Virus record (IMG/VR): IMGVR_UViG_3300045918_000470
Span: 1-64,000 of that record
Length of the DNA stretch: 64,000 nt
From: a virus
Direction: 5' to 3' (one strand)
Part shown: positions 2,076 to 64,000 of the stretch, one piece after another
How positions within the stretch are numbered: the stretch's first letter is position 1
How the letters are laid out: each line of letters starts with the position of its first letter
The notes under the pieces: generated by a model
The model's database searches: none
What the model saw: the letters and a program-made list of their open reading frames with translations, nothing else
What the model was told of the DNA's origin: nothing
Made by a program: the position numbers and the translations under genes

Positions 2076-3428
2076 CTATAATAAAATACCTAAGGTTGAT
2101 CTTCCGTTCTCATCAGGTCCACCTAATTGACCTGAGTTTGTGTATCCACAAGACCATAATGAACCATCTGATTTTTCTATGAATAATGTACCATATCCAC
2201 ATTCCATCTTGTTTGGATTTAAAATTCCAGGAATCTGTGTAAATACATTTCTATCAAGAGTATCACCTAATCCCAACTGACCACCATTATAACCACAGGA
2301 CCATACTGAACCATCTGATTTTTCAACAAATGATGCATAATAACCACATGCAATCTTATTTGGATTGTTTATATCTGTAATTTGTTCAAATGATGTTCTA
2401 TCAAGAGTATCACCTAATCCTAACCCACCATTACCATTAGCACCTGTACCCCATACTGTTCCATCAGATTTTTCAATGAAGGTATGGGCATATCCACATG
2501 CTATTTTTCTTGCGTTATCAAAACCTATAATATGTGTGAAGTCATATACATCACTATTAGCATTCAACCCAAGTTGACCATTATTATCATTTCCAGCGCC
2601 CCAGACGGTACCATCAGTTTTCTGAATTATTGTATGTCTATAACCCATTGATATTTGTAAAGGAGGATCTATTGGTAATTGCGTAGGAGTATAACAATCA
2701 TATGATCCACCAGTTCCATATTGTCCATGATCATTATATCCACAACCCCAGAATGTTCCATCAGATTTTTCAACTAATAACCCATTATATCCACAATATA
2801 CATTAATTGGATTATCAAAATCTGGTATCGCTTGCATAAACCCACTACTAGGATATGTATATCCACAAGACCATATCGTGTTATCGTTCAATTCGATAAT
2901 AATAGATTCAGCAAATGAATTACCATAAACTTTTTTAATATTATCAACACCTAAATCAAAAAATCCATAGAAATTTGTAGTTGTAGTTGATGATAAAGAA
3001 TTATTATTATTATATCCTGAACCATATAATCTTCCACCTTGAAAAATATATGACATATCATATGATGGAATGAGTGAGGTAGGATTAATAAATTTTAACC
3101 ATGATCCATTATTAAATGTGAGCACTTTCTTAACCGTTTTTTCTACATATATAATTGCAGATAGATTATTAAGATTTGACTTTAAATCGAGTGGAAGTGT
3201 ATCTGTTGTAATTACATTGGAAGATAGTGTATCCTTAGCATATTTTGATGTACACAAGGATTGTGAATTATCTAAAATACCTGTGACAATGGGAGATGAT
3301 GTAAAAGTCAACTTTCCATAAATCGTCTGATCTGTACTAAGGTCAACACGATTTGATAGATCAATGAGATTATTATCCATCTCCTCTGTTGTTAAAGGTG
3401 AACCTTTATCTAATCTTAGTGTAATCAT
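2076..3428 (-). CDS. Tail fibre/RBP-like protein with RCC1/BLIP-II repeats
   Basis: N-terminus LRLDKGSPLTTEEMDNNL; repeats EKSDGTVWGxGxNxxGQLGLG. Confidence 0.75.
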   Translation of the reverse strand: MITLRLDKGSPLTTEEMDNNLIDLSNRVDLSTDQTIYGKLTFTSSPIVTGILDNSQSLCTSKYAKDTLSSNVITTDTLPLDLKSNLNNLSAIIYVEKTVKKVLTFNNGSWLKFINPTSLIPSYDMSYIFQGGRLYGSGYNNNNSLSSTTTTNFYGFFDLGVDNIKKVYGNSFAESIIIELNDNTIWSCGYTYPSSGFMQAIPDFDNPINVYCGYNGLLVEKSDGTFWGCGYNDHGQYGTGGSYDCYTPTQLPIDPPLQISMGYRHTIIQKTDGTVWGAGNDNNGQLGLNANSDVYDFTHIIGFDNARKIACGYAHTFIEKSDGTVWGTGANGNGGLGLGDTLDRTSFEQITDINNPNKIACGYYASFVEKSDGSVWSCGYNGGQLGLGDTLDRNVFTQIPGILNPNKMECGYGTLFIEKSDGSLWSCGYTNSGQLGGPDENGRSTLGILL

Positions 3429-3437
3429 TTAATTTCC

Positions 3438-4034
3438 TTATACTACAGGAGGTGTTACATCTGCAGGTGTTGTAGGAGCATTTGCTCTTTTATCGTCACG
3501 AATTTTAATTGCATTTAGTTCATCTTCAGTTGTAGCTGCATCGATTAATTGATCAGTAGTTTGTTCTTTCAAAAACAATCCTTGGATATATTCACCTACT
3601 GCATTTGCTACCGCTGTAATTTCTGCAAGGCCAAGAGGTATAAATCCATTAGGACCTTTCCAGCTAATTGTAAGTGTAGGATTATTTGATAAGTATGTGA
3701 ATGCTGCAGTGATCATAGATTGTGAATCACGGTCAGTAGCAATACTCATATTATTAACAACAATTCCTTTATTTTCCATCATCTGTCTGTATAATTTTGC
3801 ATCTGTTTTTTTACGAACTTTTAATTCTCCAATAGTTACTATTGGTTGAAAATTGTTAACAAAATCATTTGCAATTTTAATTTCTTCTGGTGTCATAGGT
3901 GTGCGATCACCGCTGGTTAGTTTGAAACTATTGTACGGGTCAAGAATAAATGCATCACATTGAATTCCTGAGAATGATTGTGCATAACGAGTTCCATTTT
4001 TATCGAACTCAAGTACATTGTTTTGAAATCTCAT
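3438..4034 (-). CDS. DUF4376-like tail fibre assembly protein
   Basis: IATDRDSQSMITAA..WKGPNGF..IQGLFLKE..IDAATTEDELNAI pattern; lies among fibre genes. Confidence 0.65.
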   Translation of the reverse strand: MRFQNNVLEFDKNGTRYAQSFSGIQCDAFILDPYNSFKLTSGDRTPMTPEEIKIANDFVNNFQPIVTIGELKVRKKTDAKLYRQMMENKGIVVNNMSIATDRDSQSMITAAFTYLSNNPTLTISWKGPNGFIPLGLAEITAVANAVGEYIQGLFLKEQTTDQLIDAATTEDELNAIKIRDDKRANAPTTPADVTPPVV

Positions 4035-60651: not shown

Positions 60652-61041
60652 ATGTCAGTAGACACAAAATATAACCACCTACGTAATGGTACATTATATG
60701 GTGGAGCAACAATTGGTTGGTCAATTCAAGATGACGATACATTAATTACTGCATTAGCAAAATGTAATAATGTAGATCGTTTTGTAAAATCAGAAGGTAG
60801 AGTAATCGTTGATATGAGGATTAATAACTACATCGCTAATCCTGAAAAAAATACAAGCAAGTATGTTGCAGTTGTAACATTAGATGAGGTACGTGCATTT
60901 TTGTATGAAAACTCCGAGCGTGTGTTCCCAGTATTAAATCGTGATGCTACTTTGCGAGCGATTGAGTCCGTCACGATGCGTGATTTTAATTATAATACAC
61001 ATGCATTTATTACACAAGGTGTTTTTGACGAAATTCTTTAA
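60652..61041 (+). CDS. Hypothetical early protein
   Basis: TGTTATAAT at 60613; AAGGA RBS. Confidence 0.6.
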   Translation: MSVDTKYNHLRNGTLYGGATIGWSIQDDDTLITALAKCNNVDRFVKSEGRVIVDMRINNYIANPEKNTSKYVAVVTLDEVRAFLYENSERVFPVLNRDATLRAIESVTMRDFNYNTHAFITQGVFDEIL

Positions 61042-61160
61042 TTTATAAAATCTATAAATAAAACATAAGTAGTTCTTAAGGTACATTGTGTTATAATACA
61101 CGTACATAAAAAGAATAAACGAATTTTGTATCATGAATTAGTTTAAAACATTAATTTGTT

Positions 61161-61196
61161 TTTAAGCAAAGTTATGATATAATGTTCACATAAATA
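61161..61196 (+). promoter_or_regulatory. tRNA operon 1 promoter (early TTTAAG-N8-TGATATAAT, then late-like CATAAATA)
   Basis: Motifs seen directly; another early promoter at 61075-61097. Confidence 0.7.
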
Positions 61197-61223
61197 AAAA
61201 CAATAAACACATAGGAGAATATC

Positions 61224-61361
61224 ATGTTTGGTATCGAAACAAGCGCATCATCAACAATCGCAACATATCGTGATACCAGCATTATCTCTTATACATCTAC
61301 GTCTGATATTACCGATGCTTCGGCATCATATGAGATTAACTCGGCGGAAGCCAACTCCTAA
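61224..61361 (+). CDS. Putative leader (attenuator) peptide of tRNA operon 1, 45 aa
   Basis: AGGAG RBS; MFGIETSASSTIATYRDTSIISYTSTSDITDASASYEINSAEANS; 39/45 residues are S, T, I, A, Y, D or E, the amino acids of the downstream tRNAs. Confidence 0.8.
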   Translation: MFGIETSASSTIATYRDTSIISYTSTSDITDASASYEINSAEANS

Positions 61362-61403
61362 CAGAAAGTTATTTTGACTTTCTGTGATGGAAAGTCAAAA
61401 TGA
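61361..61403 (+). promoter_or_regulatory. Mutually exclusive hairpins (putative attenuator 1)
   Basis: ACAGAAAGTTA/TGACTTTCTGT versus TTATTTTGACTTTC/GAAAGTCAAAATGA. Confidence 0.7.
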
Positions 61404-61535
61404 TTCCTCAAGCACATACACGTGCAAAATTAATCAATTTTTCTTTTCATCTTGGATAAAAGTGTCGTATTCGTTTACGGCGTTCCATATTCGTATGGTC
61501 TTTTTTCTCAAGTTTTACTCAAACAACTTGTTCGT

Positions 61536-61625
61536 GGGCGGTTAATCAACACTAACTGGATAGGTGCATCGGCTGTAACCCGGTTTCTTTATGGACTCTT
61601 GGTTCGAATCCAAGGCTGCCCACCA
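61536..61625 (+). tRNA. tRNA-Tyr(GUA)
   Basis: ATCGG-CTGTAAC-CCGGT anticodon arm; TTCGAAT loop; CCA end. Confidence 0.9.
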
Positions 61626-61633
61626 TCATATAT

Positions 61634-61708
61634 GTCACCATGGAGAAGGGGTTATCTCGTCACACTTTCACTGTGAAGTCAGGGGTTCAAATCCCCTTGG
61701 TGATACCA
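61634..61708 (+). tRNA. tRNA-Glu(UUC)
   Basis: TCACA-CTTTCAC-TGTGA; CCA end. Confidence 0.9.
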
Positions 61709-61712
61709 AATT

Positions 61713-61787
61713 GGGGATATAGTATAATTGGGAATACATAAGACTTGCAATCTTGAGTCGAGGGTTCGAATCCCTCTATCTCCACCA
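61713..61787 (+). tRNA. tRNA-Ala(UGC)
   Basis: TAAGA-CTTGCAA-TCTTG; G3-U70; CCA end. Confidence 0.92.
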
Positions 61788-61800
61788 AGAATTTAAAAAT

Positions 61801-61875
61801 GGTCTTGTAGCTCAGAGGCAGAGTGCTCCGTTGTCAGCGGAAGGGTCGGGATTTCAAAATTCCTCAGGATCGCCA
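61801..61875 (+). tRNA. tRNA-Asp(GUC)
   Basis: TCCG-TTGTCAG-CGGA; GCCA end. Confidence 0.88.
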
Positions 61876-61882
61876 AAAATAT

Positions 61883-61956
61883 AGTTCTATAGCTCAATGG
61901 CAGAGTAATCCCTTGATAAGGGATAGACGAAGGGTCAGTACCTTCTAGAACTACCA
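61883..61956 (+). tRNA. tRNA-Ile(GAU)
   Basis: ATCCC-TTGATAA-GGGAT; CCA end. Confidence 0.88.
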
Positions 61957-61961
61957 AACAT

Positions 61962-62054
61962 GGGCAATTGGCAGAAATGGAATAATTGCACTAGTCTTGA
62001 AAACTAGCAGAGCGTCAAAAACTCTTGTTGGATCGTACCCAACATTGCCCGCCA
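61962..62054 (+). tRNA. tRNA-Ser(UGA)
   Basis: CTAGT-CTTGAAA-ACTAG; long variable arm; GCCA end. Confidence 0.9.
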
Positions 62055-62059
62055 AAATA

Positions 62060-62140
62060 TGTTGTTTGTAGTATAATAGTTATTACAGGAGAGAACAGTG
62101 GACACTCCAGATACGGTGCAATTCCGTCGAGCGACAACCA
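62060..62140 (+). ncRNA. tRNA-like RNA with aberrant anticodon arm
   Basis: 9-bp acceptor, D arm, GGAG-13nt-CTCC, 4-bp T stem, ACCA end. Confidence 0.6.
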
Positions 62141-62146
62141 AAATAT

Positions 62147-62222
62147 GCCGATTTAGCTCATTCAGCAGAGCAGTAGTTTTGTAAACTACAGGTGAGGGGA
62201 GCAAAGCCTCTAATCGGCACCA
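62147..62222 (+). tRNA. tRNA-Thr(UGU)
   Basis: GTAGT-TTTGTAA-ACTAC; CCA end. Confidence 0.88.
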
Positions 62223-62301
62223 GATTGATTTTTATGAAGGGTCTATTTCTTAAATGAAAATCTTTCACAAAAGTTAATAAATTCATAGAATTTAATCTAA
62301 C

Positions 62302-62368
62302 TTTAAGCTATACTATGTTATAATGTCTGTACATAAAAAGAAAAACATAGTTTTTCAAAACATAAATA
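62302..62368 (+). promoter_or_regulatory. tRNA operon 2 promoter (early TTTAAG-N8-TGTTATAAT, then late-like CATAAATA)
   Basis: Same architecture as the operon 1 promoter. Confidence 0.7.
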
Positions 62369-62393
62369 AAACAATAAAAACAAGGAGCACACA

Positions 62394-62564
62394 ATGTGTA
62401 ACACAAGCAGCAACGTACAAAATGTTAATGTCAATGTATTAAATCGCAATAGCGTGCTCCGTGCTAGTCAACTGAATTTGGCAGGGTTAAGCTTAGGGCA
62501 AAATCAAGCAGTTCAAAGTTGGTTAAATACTTCTAATTCTCTTTTACAGAATACTTCAATCTAA
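62394..62564 (+). CDS. Putative leader (attenuator) peptide of tRNA operon 2, 56 aa
   Basis: AAGGAG RBS; MCNTSSNVQNVNVNVLNRNSVLRASQLNLAGLSLGQNQAVQSWLNTSNSLLQNTSI; rich in N, L, S, Q and V. Confidence 0.8.
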   Translation: MCNTSSNVQNVNVNVLNRNSVLRASQLNLAGLSLGQNQAVQSWLNTSNSLLQNTSI

Positions 62565-62598
62565 GTTTTCTTTAAAGGGGATTTAGTTCCCCTTTAAA
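62533..62598 (+). promoter_or_regulatory. Mutually exclusive hairpins (putative attenuator 2)
   Basis: TTTAAAGGGGA/TCCCCTTTAAA versus CTAATTCTCTTTTA/TAAAGGGGATTTAG (13 of 14 paired). Confidence 0.65.
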
Positions 62599-62672
62599 TG
62601 ATAAACAAAAACCAATCATTTAAAACACTAAATTCTCTATTGTTAATTCAATTTTTTCTTAGAATTCTCAGT

Positions 62673-62760
62673 TCTCTACAGCGCGCAAGGTGTGCGAGGC
62701 GACTGTTAATCGTTTGGCGAGAGTTAAATCCGATGCTTGGTTCGATTCCAAGGTGGAGAG
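62673..62760 (+). tRNA. tRNA-Asn(GUU), long extra arm, no encoded CCA
   Basis: GGCGA-CTGTTAA-TCGTT; TTCGATT loop; U1-A72, G73. Confidence 0.8.
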
Positions 62761-62794
62761 CTGAGAATTCAAGAAATCTATTAGATAACTTCGC

Positions 62795-62867
62795 TCAAGA
62801 GTAGGCAAACTGGTATGCCAACGGTCTTTGAAGCCGTAGATTGTAGGTTCGAACCCTGCCTCTTGAG
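62795..62867 (+). tRNA. tRNA-Gln(UUG), no encoded CCA
   Basis: ACGGT-CTTTGAA-GCCGT; TTCGAAC loop; U1-A72, G73. Confidence 0.87.
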
Positions 62868-62934
62868 CGAAGTTATCTATTTAGAATATAGGACGTATTA
62901 CTTTGAAAATGATAAATAAAGTATATATTTATCT

Positions 62935-63738
62935 AGGAACTACACTTTACATTATGATAACTTAATCAATAGAGCTAAAGAAAGAACTCTTGAAAGTTAC
63001 ACCGAATCTCATCATATAATACCACGTTGTTTAGGTGGTACAAATGATAAAGATAATTTAGTTGACTTAACAACAAGAGAACATTTTATAGCTCATTTGT
63101 TATTGTGGAAGATACATCCTAATCATTATGGTTTAGTTAAAGCTATTTCTATAATGTGTGTTCAATCTACTAATATGAACGAAAATCGTTCTTGTAATAG
63201 AATGTATGGATGGTTAAAGGAAAAATTTTCAGAAGCTCAATCTTTATCTCAATCGGGTGATGGTAATAGTCAATTCGGTACTATGTGGATTCATAATTTA
63301 GATTTAAAAGAGTCTAAGAAGATACCTAAATCTGATGAAATACCTTTAGGATGGAATAAAGGTCGTAAAATTAAATTCGATCTTGAAAATATAAAGAAAG
63401 AAATTAAAGATCAAATCAAAGAGAGAAACAAAAATAAACTTGAAGAAAAACTTCAAGAAAAGAGAAATTCTTTCCTAGATATATTTGAAGCTTATAAAGC
63501 TTATGGATACAAATATGTTATTGAAAATTTTGATTATGATAAATCTGAAGGTGTTTTATATTCAAAATTGAAAACTCTTTTTGGAGAATTTAAAAAACAA
63601 TATGAAGTGAAAATTGATAGATTTTATATTTGTCAAGAATGTAAATGTACCTTCACGAAAAAAGGGAAGTCTACAGATAATTTTAAATGTTGTAGTAGAA
63701 AATGTTCTGGTTTATTGAATAGACCGAAATTTGGATAA
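62935..63738 (+). CDS. HNH homing endonuclease; expected start codon reads AGG
   Basis: Frame open upstream of the track start 63097: (R)NYTLHYDNLINRAKER..ESHHIIPRCLGGTNDKDNLVDLTTREHFIAHLLL. Confidence 0.8.
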   Translation, partial: RNYTLHYDNLINRAKERTLESYTESHHIIPRCLGGTNDKDNLVDLTTREHFIAHLLLWKIHPNHYGLVKAISIMCVQSTNMNENRSCNRMYGWLKEKFSEAQSLSQSGDGNSQFGTMWIHNLDLKESKKIPKSDEIPLGWNKGRKIKFDLENIKKEIKDQIKERNKNKLEEKLQEKRNSFLDIFEAYKAYGYKYVIENFDYDKSEGVLYSKLKTLFGEFKKQYEVKIDRFYICQECKCTFTKKGKSTDNFKCCSRKCSGLLNRPKFG

Positions 63739-63743
63739 AATAT

Positions 63744-63820
63744 GCTCGTCTAGTGCAACGGTAGACGCATCAGACTTAAAATCTGTCCAGGTGTGGGTTC
63801 GAATCCCACGGCGAGCACCA
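63744..63820 (+). tRNA. tRNA-Leu(UAA), short variable region
   Basis: CAGA-CTTAAAA-TCTG; TTCGAAT loop; ACCA end. Confidence 0.85.
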
Positions 63821-63831
63821 AAATTATAAAT

Positions 63832-63905
63832 GCTTCCTTAGTGAAATGGTATCACACCTTCCTTCCAAGTAGGAGTCGTCGGATCGTTACCGACAGGACG
63901 CACCA
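63832..63905 (+). tRNA. tRNA-Gly(UCC)
   Basis: CCTTC-CTTCCAA-GTAGG; CCA end. Confidence 0.82.
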
Positions 63906-63907
63906 AT

Positions 63908-63982
63908 GCCAGATTAACTCAAAAGTAGAGTGTTTCCCTTACAAGGAGAAAGTAGTAGGAGCGTTACCTACATCTGGTACCA
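63908..63982 (+). tRNA. tRNA-Val(UAC)
   Basis: TTTCC-CTTACAA-GGAGA; CCA end. Confidence 0.87.
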
Positions 63983-64000
63983 AAAAATGTTCCTGTACTC

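Follow-up and report, generated by a model that had tools for sequence, protein, structure and literature searches.

The leader 2 unit and its tRNA array

We analysed a 64,000-nucleotide stretch of viral DNA (the window), which comprises bases 1-64000 of the 77,797-bp IMG/VR record IMGVR_UViG_3300045918_000470 (G000); bases 60001-77797 of the record were also analysed. Two tRNA arrays are encoded at the right-hand end of the window and beyond it, each preceded by a short open reading frame (ORF), named leader 1 and leader 2. The main subject here is leader 2, which heads the second unit (operon 2). Its composition follows the tRNA genes behind it, and its end can fold into two competing hairpins that are retained in a related genome, G001. 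The record has a G+C content of 34%, a portal protein matching Pfam Portal_T4 (3e-118) and a gp23-type capsid protein with at most 49% identity to capsids of Vibrio and Campylobacter phages; judging from its sequence, it is an uncultured T4-like myovirus. The leader 2 unit contains the following elements:

62302-62324, + strand: promoter, TTTAAG, 8 nucleotides (nt), TGTTATAAT (extended -10); kept in G001
62382-62387, + strand: Shine-Dalgarno box AAGGAG, 6 nt 5' of the ATG; identical in G001
62394-62564, + strand: leader 2 ORF, ATG start, 56 codons and TAA
62533-62586, + strand: alternative hairpin, -17.4 kcal/mol (RNAfold, with the sequence past 62587 omitted); -18.7 kcal/mol in G001
62571-62598, + strand: terminal hairpin, 11 bp, 6-nt loop, GGGG/CCCC core, about -15.5 kcal/mol alone; followed by TTTAAATGAT

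The terminal hairpin begins 6 nt past the stop codon, and the first tRNA follows 75 nt after it. No promoter-like site was observed between leader 2 and the first tRNA. As expected of an attenuator, a short ORF with a ribosome-binding site is situated between the operon promoter and the tRNA genes. The leader 2 product has no match in Pfam or in other families.

The tRNA genes were identified by ARAGORN with default and relaxed thresholds and by the Rfam tRNA model (RF00005). Array 2 extends past the window edge:

62673-62761, + strand: Asn(GUU)-type tRNA-like gene, 89 nt, inside an extended helix, no encoded CCA; ARAGORN, missed by the Rfam tRNA model
62795-62868, + strand: tRNA-Gln(UUG); ARAGORN and Rfam (62.9 bits)
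62905-63738, + strand: putative HNH-type homing-endonuclease-like ORF (motif read by eye), canonical start only at 63097
63744-63820, + strand: tRNA-Leu(UAA); ARAGORN and Rfam
63832-63905, + strand: tRNA-Gly(UCC); ARAGORN and Rfam
63908-63979, + strand: tRNA-Val(UAC), anticodon loop CUUACAA; Rfam (49.6 bits), missed by default ARAGORN
63989-64064 (63989-64000 inside the window), + strand: tRNA-Leu(CAA)
64073-64155, beyond the window: tRNA-Leu(UAG)
64165-64248, beyond the window: tRNA-Leu(AAG)
64258-64330: tRNA-Asn(GUU); Rfam (40.9 bits)
64346-64406: Cys(GCA)-like element, no acceptor stem
64566-65339: second HNH-like ORF
65314-65404: candidate tRNA-Ser(GCU); relaxed ARAGORN only
65425-65487: Ile(UAU)-like element, no acceptor stem
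65502-65579: tRNA-Trp(CCA)
66750-66824: tRNA-Arg(ACG), behind two protein genes

The sister unit has the same architecture:

61175-61183, + strand: -10 element of the leader 1 promoter (TGATATAAT)
61224-61361, + strand: leader 1 ORF, 45 codons (S11 T7 A6 I6 D3 E3 Y3)
61361-61385 (A) and 61367-61405 (B), + strand: mutually exclusive hairpins at the leader 1 stop codon
61540-62222, + strand: tRNA array 1, Tyr(GUA), Glu, Ala, Asp, Ile(GAU), Ser(UGA), a His-like element, Thr(UGU)

The Tyr gene of array 1 was found in G000 only with the relaxed threshold, but for the G001 homologue, which is 92% identical, the default settings of ARAGORN suffice.

Composition and codon usage of the leaders

An earlier note on this stretch, made from the letters alone, had proposed that leader 2 matches operon 2, and this is borne out. 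The ORF was found as described there, with the composition N12 L9 S9 Q6 V6 T3 A3 G2 R2 and single M, C, W and I. It lacks K, D, E, F, Y, P and H altogether (P = 2e-10). Forty-six of 55 residues belong to the set {N,Q,L,G,V,C,S,W} (background 0.41; binomial P = 8e-11), and 36 of 55 to the set {N,Q,L,G,V,W} defined by the high-confidence tRNAs only (P = 4e-7). Among the 330 six-frame ORFs of 35-90 amino acids (aa) in G000 leader 2 ranks first (0.84; runner-up 0.71). Leader 1 likewise ranks first of 330 for its own set {Y,E,A,D,I,S,T} (0.89; runner-up 0.60), with 39 of 44 residues corresponding to the seven tRNAs behind it (2e-9). The crossed sets fail: leader 1 has 14 of 44 residues in the set of array 2, and leader 2 has 16 of 55 in that of array 1. 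No window of the 54 long ORFs of G000 comes near the value of either leader (55-aa windows in the case of leader 2).

An automated screen based on default ARAGORN calls and blind to the leaders placed both at the top in G000 and in G001 (1e-6 to 1e-7, both with a Shine-Dalgarno box). The same screen of three control arrays, from G006, Aeromonas phage phiAS5 and the T5-like Salmonella phage EH3, produced no composition-matched ORF preceded by a Shine-Dalgarno box. In G006 (46% capsid identity) a 41-aa ORF with a Shine-Dalgarno box lies upstream of Leu, Gly, Phe, Ile, Lys and Lys tRNAs (positions 3318-3443 of locus L047, G006:C1 32500-43958). As a candidate leader it is not convincing: the match is weak (about half of the residues; P 0.01-0.1) and the product looks hydrophobic.

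The codons of leader 2 agree with the same array. Six of the nine leucine codons are of the TTA/TTG type, as had been claimed (TTA 5, TTG 1; CTC, CTG and CTT 1 each), and six of the nine serine codons are AGY (AGC 4, AGT 2; TCT 2, TCA 1). The opposite serine bias reported for leader 1 is also present (nine UCN versus two AGC), the contrast between the two leaders being suggestive only (Fisher P = 0.065). In the long ORFs of G000 AGY accounts for 26% of serine codons and AGC for only 6%; against this background, both the six AGY (P = 0.012) and the four AGC codons (P = 0.001) of leader 2 are in excess. Within codons 2-43, 38 of 42 can be read by the tRNAs of operon 2 together with Arg(ACG); the other four, one threonine and three alanine codons, are served by array 1. 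All three UCN serine codons, two ACT threonine codons and the ATC isoleucine codon fall in the last 13 codons, and the pattern in G001 is similar. Since this strand pairs with the 5' arm of the terminal hairpin, these codons seem to reflect a constraint of RNA structure rather than sensing. The enrichment in codons that report on the regulated product is typical of attenuators.

Competing hairpins

The 11-bp hairpin that the earlier note placed 6 nt past the leader 2 stop codon is present. It occurs once in the window and is nearly invariant in G001. The competing pairing between 62533-62546 and 62573-62586 is also real, consists of 11 Watson-Crick pairs, two G-U pairs and one mismatch, and forms the base of the alternative hairpin, in which the last ten codons of the leader pair with the stop-proximal spacer and with the 5' arm and loop of the terminal hairpin. 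Folding z-scores of the leader 2 structures relative to shuffled sequences are between -4.3 and -5.6 (-5.5 for the alternative hairpin). Mutually exclusive folds at the end of the leader ORF, again a property of attenuators, are retained in G001. A ribosome with its A site at codon 43 or earlier leaves the RNA from 62533 onward free.

A similar pair of folds was found at the end of leader 1. Hairpin A (-11.9 kcal/mol) opens on the last base of the stop codon, and hairpin B (-18.0 kcal/mol) shares the 3' strand of A. Both are preserved in G001 (-9.9 and -17.1 kcal/mol) with compensatory changes on both strands. RNAalifold on the two sequences added little because of alignment shifts.

Conservation in related phages

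No DNA-level match to 61100-64000 was found in GenBank phages by megablast, and no match to leader 2 by tblastn; a distant blastn search of the locus against GenBank phages found single tRNAs only. A search anchored on a 129-aa neighbour gene found no related locus, and nothing was found in metagenome contigs by a protein-alignment scan and a degenerate DNA pattern scan for the leader. Viral contigs scanned with the leader DNA pattern and the hairpin pattern yielded G001-type contigs only. Logan contigs were too short to reconstruct the arrays of relatives at about 90% identity, and uncovered bins were not used as evidence. Samples containing the phage come from wetland, pond and sediment, and no RNA run was among the sequencing runs listed for it.

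Both leader-array units are present in the G001 lineage, which consists of G001 and three near-identical contigs with 80% capsid identity (capsid-anchored loci). Its leader 2 is 47 aa long (N15 L7 Q4 V3 G2 C1 W1) and matches its array 2, which is compact, has no endonuclease genes and contains Asn (two genes), Val, Cys, Gly (two), Leu (four), Gln and Trp. The 89-nt Asn-type gene is the first of the array in G001 too (90% conserved). The promoter, the Shine-Dalgarno box, the last eight codons, the stop codon, the spacer and the hairpin are nearly invariant between the two genomes. The indels within leader 2, of 6, 15 and 6 nt, all preserve the frame, and the conserved block NRN-VLR-LNLAGL contains six synonymous changes. 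The fraction of differing synonymous sites (pS) is 0.37 in leader 2 and 0.74 in the adjacent neck gene, the nonsynonymous divergence (dN) being alike. The in-frame indels and the low pS argue for in-frame reading of leader 2 and for an RNA or codon constraint on it.

Six variants of leader 2 are available, from G000, G001 and four further records found in protein searches. They are 47-58 aa long and have 78-88% of residues in the set. In the three leader 1 records, one of which (45 aa) also came from the protein searches, 85-89% of residues are in their set. No longer relatives of the leaders were found among 1.84 billion protein representatives.

Leader 1 of G001 can barely be aligned to the G000 version, yet 34 of its 40 residues fall in the same set. 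Its tyrosine count is doubled (6), and its array has extra Tyr genes. In a relative of about 90% identity from sediment, vent and mat metagenomes, 10 of 13 residue changes in leader 1 stay within the set. The ratio dN/dS of leader 1 is about 0.8. Leader 1 keeps its composition but not its sequence.

Serine codons differ between the lineages. Leader 2 of G001 has no AGY codons, and no homologue of the Ser(GCU) candidate was found in 35 kb of G001. Four AGY serine codons of G000 are aligned with AAY asparagine codons of G001, one base apart.

The array beyond the window edge

The tRNA-like start that the earlier note had seen at 63989 belongs to tRNA-Leu(CAA). The note had also predicted leucine tRNAs reading CUN codons and possibly an Arg(ACG) tRNA in the adjacent sequence. 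Leu(UAG) at 64073, Leu(AAG) at 64165 and Arg(ACG) at 66750 are all solid calls, although the last lies behind the two protein genes. No Lys, Phe, Pro or His tRNA, the amino acids absent from leader 2 whose tRNAs would have spoken against the match, follows in the rest of operon 2; past base 64000 every tRNA of the array serves an amino acid that occurs in leader 2.

The prediction of a Ser(GCU) tRNA had a mixed outcome. A cloverleaf of this type does exist at 65314-65404, but only ARAGORN with the relaxed threshold detects it. It has a 7-bp acceptor stem, the anticodon loop UUGCUAA (U33-GCU-A37) and a long variable arm, and its 3' CCA is encoded, as in the neighbouring genes. The unconstrained minimum free energy structure is the cloverleaf itself (-29 kcal/mol, z = -3.2).

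Several tRNAs of array 2 have non-consensus T loops (Val, AGCGUUA, 63908-63979; Asn, GGCGGAA, 64258-64330; also Leu(UAG), 64073-64155, and the Ser(GCU) candidate, 65314-65404), which depresses the detector scores of these genes. These could be degenerate genes or deliberately altered tRNAs. Three further elements have good D, anticodon and T arms and a broken or missing acceptor stem: the His-like element of array 1 (62060-62140), the Cys-like element and the Ile(UAU)-like element. The His-like element is 86% conserved in G001 and thus probably functional as something. The Rfam matches to YrlA and to a plastid untranslated region overlap tRNAs, are below threshold and were rejected.

The first two tRNAs of array 2, Asn-type and Gln (62655-62885), have no encoded CCA and are embedded in long extended helices; the Gln gene is flanked by a perfect 20-nt inverted repeat (62782-62801 and 62860-62879). 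These helices suggest an unusual processing route. The ORFs 62905-63738 and 64566-65339, both of which interrupt the array, are paralogues, and the former has no Pfam match.

A possible mode of regulation

Taken together, these features suggest, with moderate confidence, that leader 2 is a translated, attenuator-type gauge of decoding capacity which heads the second tRNA unit and exerts negative feedback on it. Attenuation as such is plausible but unproven. The codons of leader 2, chiefly 2-43, would be read almost exclusively by tRNAs encoded behind it: Asn, Gln, four Leu isoacceptors, Val, Gly, Ser for AGY, Cys and Trp, with Arg for CGY further on. A ribosome that moves smoothly would reach the stop codon and mask the last ten codons, and the hairpin 62571-62598 would form behind RNA polymerase. 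Once formed, the hairpin would limit how much transcription passes on to the tRNA genes; weak intrinsic termination is the probable means, pausing or processing a possible one. If an aminoacyl-tRNA is scarce, the ribosome would stall early, and the last codons would remain free to capture the 5' arm of the hairpin before its 3' arm is made. With the hairpin blocked, transcription would enter the tRNA genes. The predicted outcome is negative feedback with tRNAs made on demand, for example once the host's own tRNAs run short or are degraded or cleaved. Leader 1 would act likewise on array 1.

A broader and more tentative view is that of a tRNA homeostat in this phage clade. Each array might be gated by a translated leader that spells its tRNAs, be transcribed when ribosomes stall (decay of host tRNAs, attack by anticodon nucleases), and co-evolve with its leader. 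On this view, Asn AAY codons would have changed to Ser AGY in the lineage that holds the Ser(GCU) gene in one block with a homing-endonuclease gene.

A number of observations weigh against the attenuator model. Not all of leader 2 fits it: only array 1 supplies tRNAs for its A, T and I codons, and the regulatory codons are dispersed over 40 codons, whereas in classic leaders they are clustered. The Ser(GCU) candidate has an atypical T loop (GUCGGUA) and discriminator (U73), is absent from the calls of default ARAGORN and of RF00005 (threshold of at least 29 bits; no match even at E<=10), and lies 2.7 kb downstream behind two homing-endonuclease genes. In contigs of three metagenome runs (X4, X5, X7) Leu(AAG) is joined directly to Trp; the 1.24-kb block that they appear to skip contains Asn, the Cys-like element, the second HNH-like ORF, the Ser(GCU) candidate and the Ile-like element. 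However, the leader 2 contig of this lineage, where the contigs are short, keeps at least four AGY codons. The covariation of AGY codons with Ser(GCU) is therefore based on two lineages and may fail in the third. The skipped block points to a mobile cassette carrying tRNA genes around the second HNH-like ORF. Furthermore, tRNA cluster 3 of this phage (G000:C1 69297-70530) has no leader ORF despite a promoter of the same type.

The tails of the hairpins belong to the same side of the balance. The terminal hairpin of leader 2 is followed by TTTAAATGAT without a U-tract and is missed by a terminator scan that does detect the terminator of the capsid gene; the scan requires five T in eight positions, and the site is unlisted for this reason. 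The GGGG/CCCC core is followed by UUUAAAU, and the tail UUUAAAUGAU would make a weak terminator at best. The hairpins of leader 1 lack any U-rich tail. Of the anti-terminator geometry that had been proposed for leader 2, the competing pairing stands and is kept in the relative; the roles of terminator and anti-terminator remain putative, as the hairpin has no U-tract that passes the scan. An AU-only hairpin with a T-run further downstream, common to both units, was considered as the real terminator and rejected, being too weak and not conserved in G001.

It is possible, if rather unlikely, that the leader senses tRNA supply and the hairpins control not termination but processing or stability of the precursor (entry of RNase E, III or P, protection of the 3' end), access of Rho, or pausing. 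This is a serious rival because of the weak tail of leader 2 and the lack of a U-rich tail in leader 1. It agrees with the conserved, mutually exclusive hairpins without U-tracts in both leaders, with the resemblance of the extended helices around the first two tRNAs of array 2 to processing substrates, and with the AAATGA motif found past the 3' arm of all four leader hairpins in G000 and G001. However, a GGGG/CCCC core followed by UUU still fits a weak terminator. Less probable is the explanation that the leaders are ordinary small, early, low-complexity phage proteins, that the hairpins are plain terminators or stabilisers, and that the match to the tRNAs arises indirectly from co-adaptation of phage tRNAs and codon usage or has no regulatory meaning. 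Indeed, tRNA regions of T4- and T5-like phages are rich in small ORFs, and in all six variants of leader 2 one block (NRN-VLR-LNLAGL and the C-terminus) is conserved in its position. On the other hand, the partition of amino acids between the two leaders is exactly that between the two arrays (39/44 with the own array against 14/44 with the other for leader 1, and 46/55 against 16/55 for leader 2). Moreover, leader 1 has kept its composition although almost any sequence change seems tolerated, leader 2 has changed less at synonymous sites than the neighbouring protein gene, no small ORF of comparable match was found in the three control arrays, and the leaders have neither a match in Pfam or other families nor longer relatives.

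An accidental agreement between a low-complexity ORF and the genes next to it is very improbable. AT-rich genomes do give spurious ORFs rich in N, L and S, and the choice of the tRNA set was in part made with the leader already in view. However, both leaders rank first of 330, with P from 1e-7 to 1e-10 even when only default tRNA calls are used; the arrangement and the frame-preserving indels are conserved in a relative whose neighbouring genes are synonymously saturated; and the prediction for the sequence past the window edge held. The amino acid partition, the conservation of composition without that of sequence, the synonymous conservation and the negative controls disfavour both the small-protein and the chance explanations.

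Other features of the region

The promoters described above belong to a class TTTAAG-N8/9-TRTGNTATAAT with about 15 copies on the + strand of G000, situated ahead of genes (60613, 61089, 61175 and 62316 in the window; G000:C1 68377-76413). Leader 1 and tRNA cluster 3 are each preceded by two such promoters in tandem, with a spacing of about 90 nt. Cluster 3 itself contains Phe-like, Met, Leu and Cys tRNAs, and a stem-closed element (about 69410-69455) follows its promoter in place of a leader ORF. An Rfam Thr_leader match on the minus strand (60844-61010; 27.5 bits against a cut-off of 55) was taken as chance.

Among the protein genes, one encoding an RNaseH-like protein lies between the Trp and Arg(ACG) tRNAs (G000:C1 65612-66070), queC of the 7-deazaguanine pathway lies near the tRNA region (G000:C1 77220-77795; Pfam 2e-38), and a small ORF resembling c-type cytochromes contains a CxxCH motif (G000:C1 74063-74338; below the Pfam cut-off).

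Comparison with known systems

The question of why phages carry tRNA genes and how these are controlled is now tied to host shut-off and to host defences that target tRNAs. In a search whose coverage of subscription journals was thin, we found no publication, on phages or on other systems, in which a leader peptide controls tRNA genes, and we know of no leader ORF described for the tRNA genes of T4. If the proposed regulation is true, tRNA genes would gain their first described cis-acting feedback device, and classic attenuation would extend from amino acid metabolism to the decoding machinery. The rule that leader composition equals array content could then be searched for in any genome and could predict missing or unrecognised tRNAs, a use to which it was put at the window edge.

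The closest structural parallels are the multivalent leader-peptide attenuators of enterobacteria, such as the ilvGMEDA leader with isoleucine, leucine and valine codons and thrL with threonine and isoleucine codons. Like the leaders considered here, these are short, promoter-proximal ORFs with a Shine-Dalgarno box and codons of several relevant amino acids, with mutually exclusive hairpins that reach into the 3' end of the ORF and are selected by the position of the ribosome. However, the leaders described here reside in a phage and would regulate tRNAs instead of biosynthetic enzymes. Their ORFs are longer (45-56 codons), cognate codons for about eight amino acids fill nearly the whole ORF, and there is no clear terminator with a U-tract. 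The pheM leader, which attenuates the phenylalanyl-tRNA synthetase operon pheST, is analogous in that part of the translation machinery itself is placed under a leader peptide that responds to charged tRNA. It is specific to a single amino acid and its target is a protein; the present leaders would instead control the same tRNAs by which they are read.

T-box riboswitches also sense the status of tRNA and choose between terminator and antiterminator for genes of charged-tRNA supply, but they bind uncharged tRNA directly, without translation. No T-box was found by Rfam in 60001-77797 at E<=1, and no other Rfam leader at threshold. The leader 2 system is not a T-box.

Among tRNA arrays, the T4-type region with the homing endonuclease SegB (PMC2330249, as cited in PMC8421152) is similar in that a T4-like phage has clustered tRNA genes broken by homing-endonuclease genes; it differs in the endonucleases, which are HNH-like in G000. 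In Anabaena sp. PCC 7120 the control of the trn operon involves direct repeats in the promoter and the repressor TrcR, and a leader peptide or attenuation is not mentioned (PMC8421152; PMC10272220). This operon is a long tRNA array induced when translation is impaired (PMC8421152; PMC10272220), and it is the nearest published functional analogue that we found.

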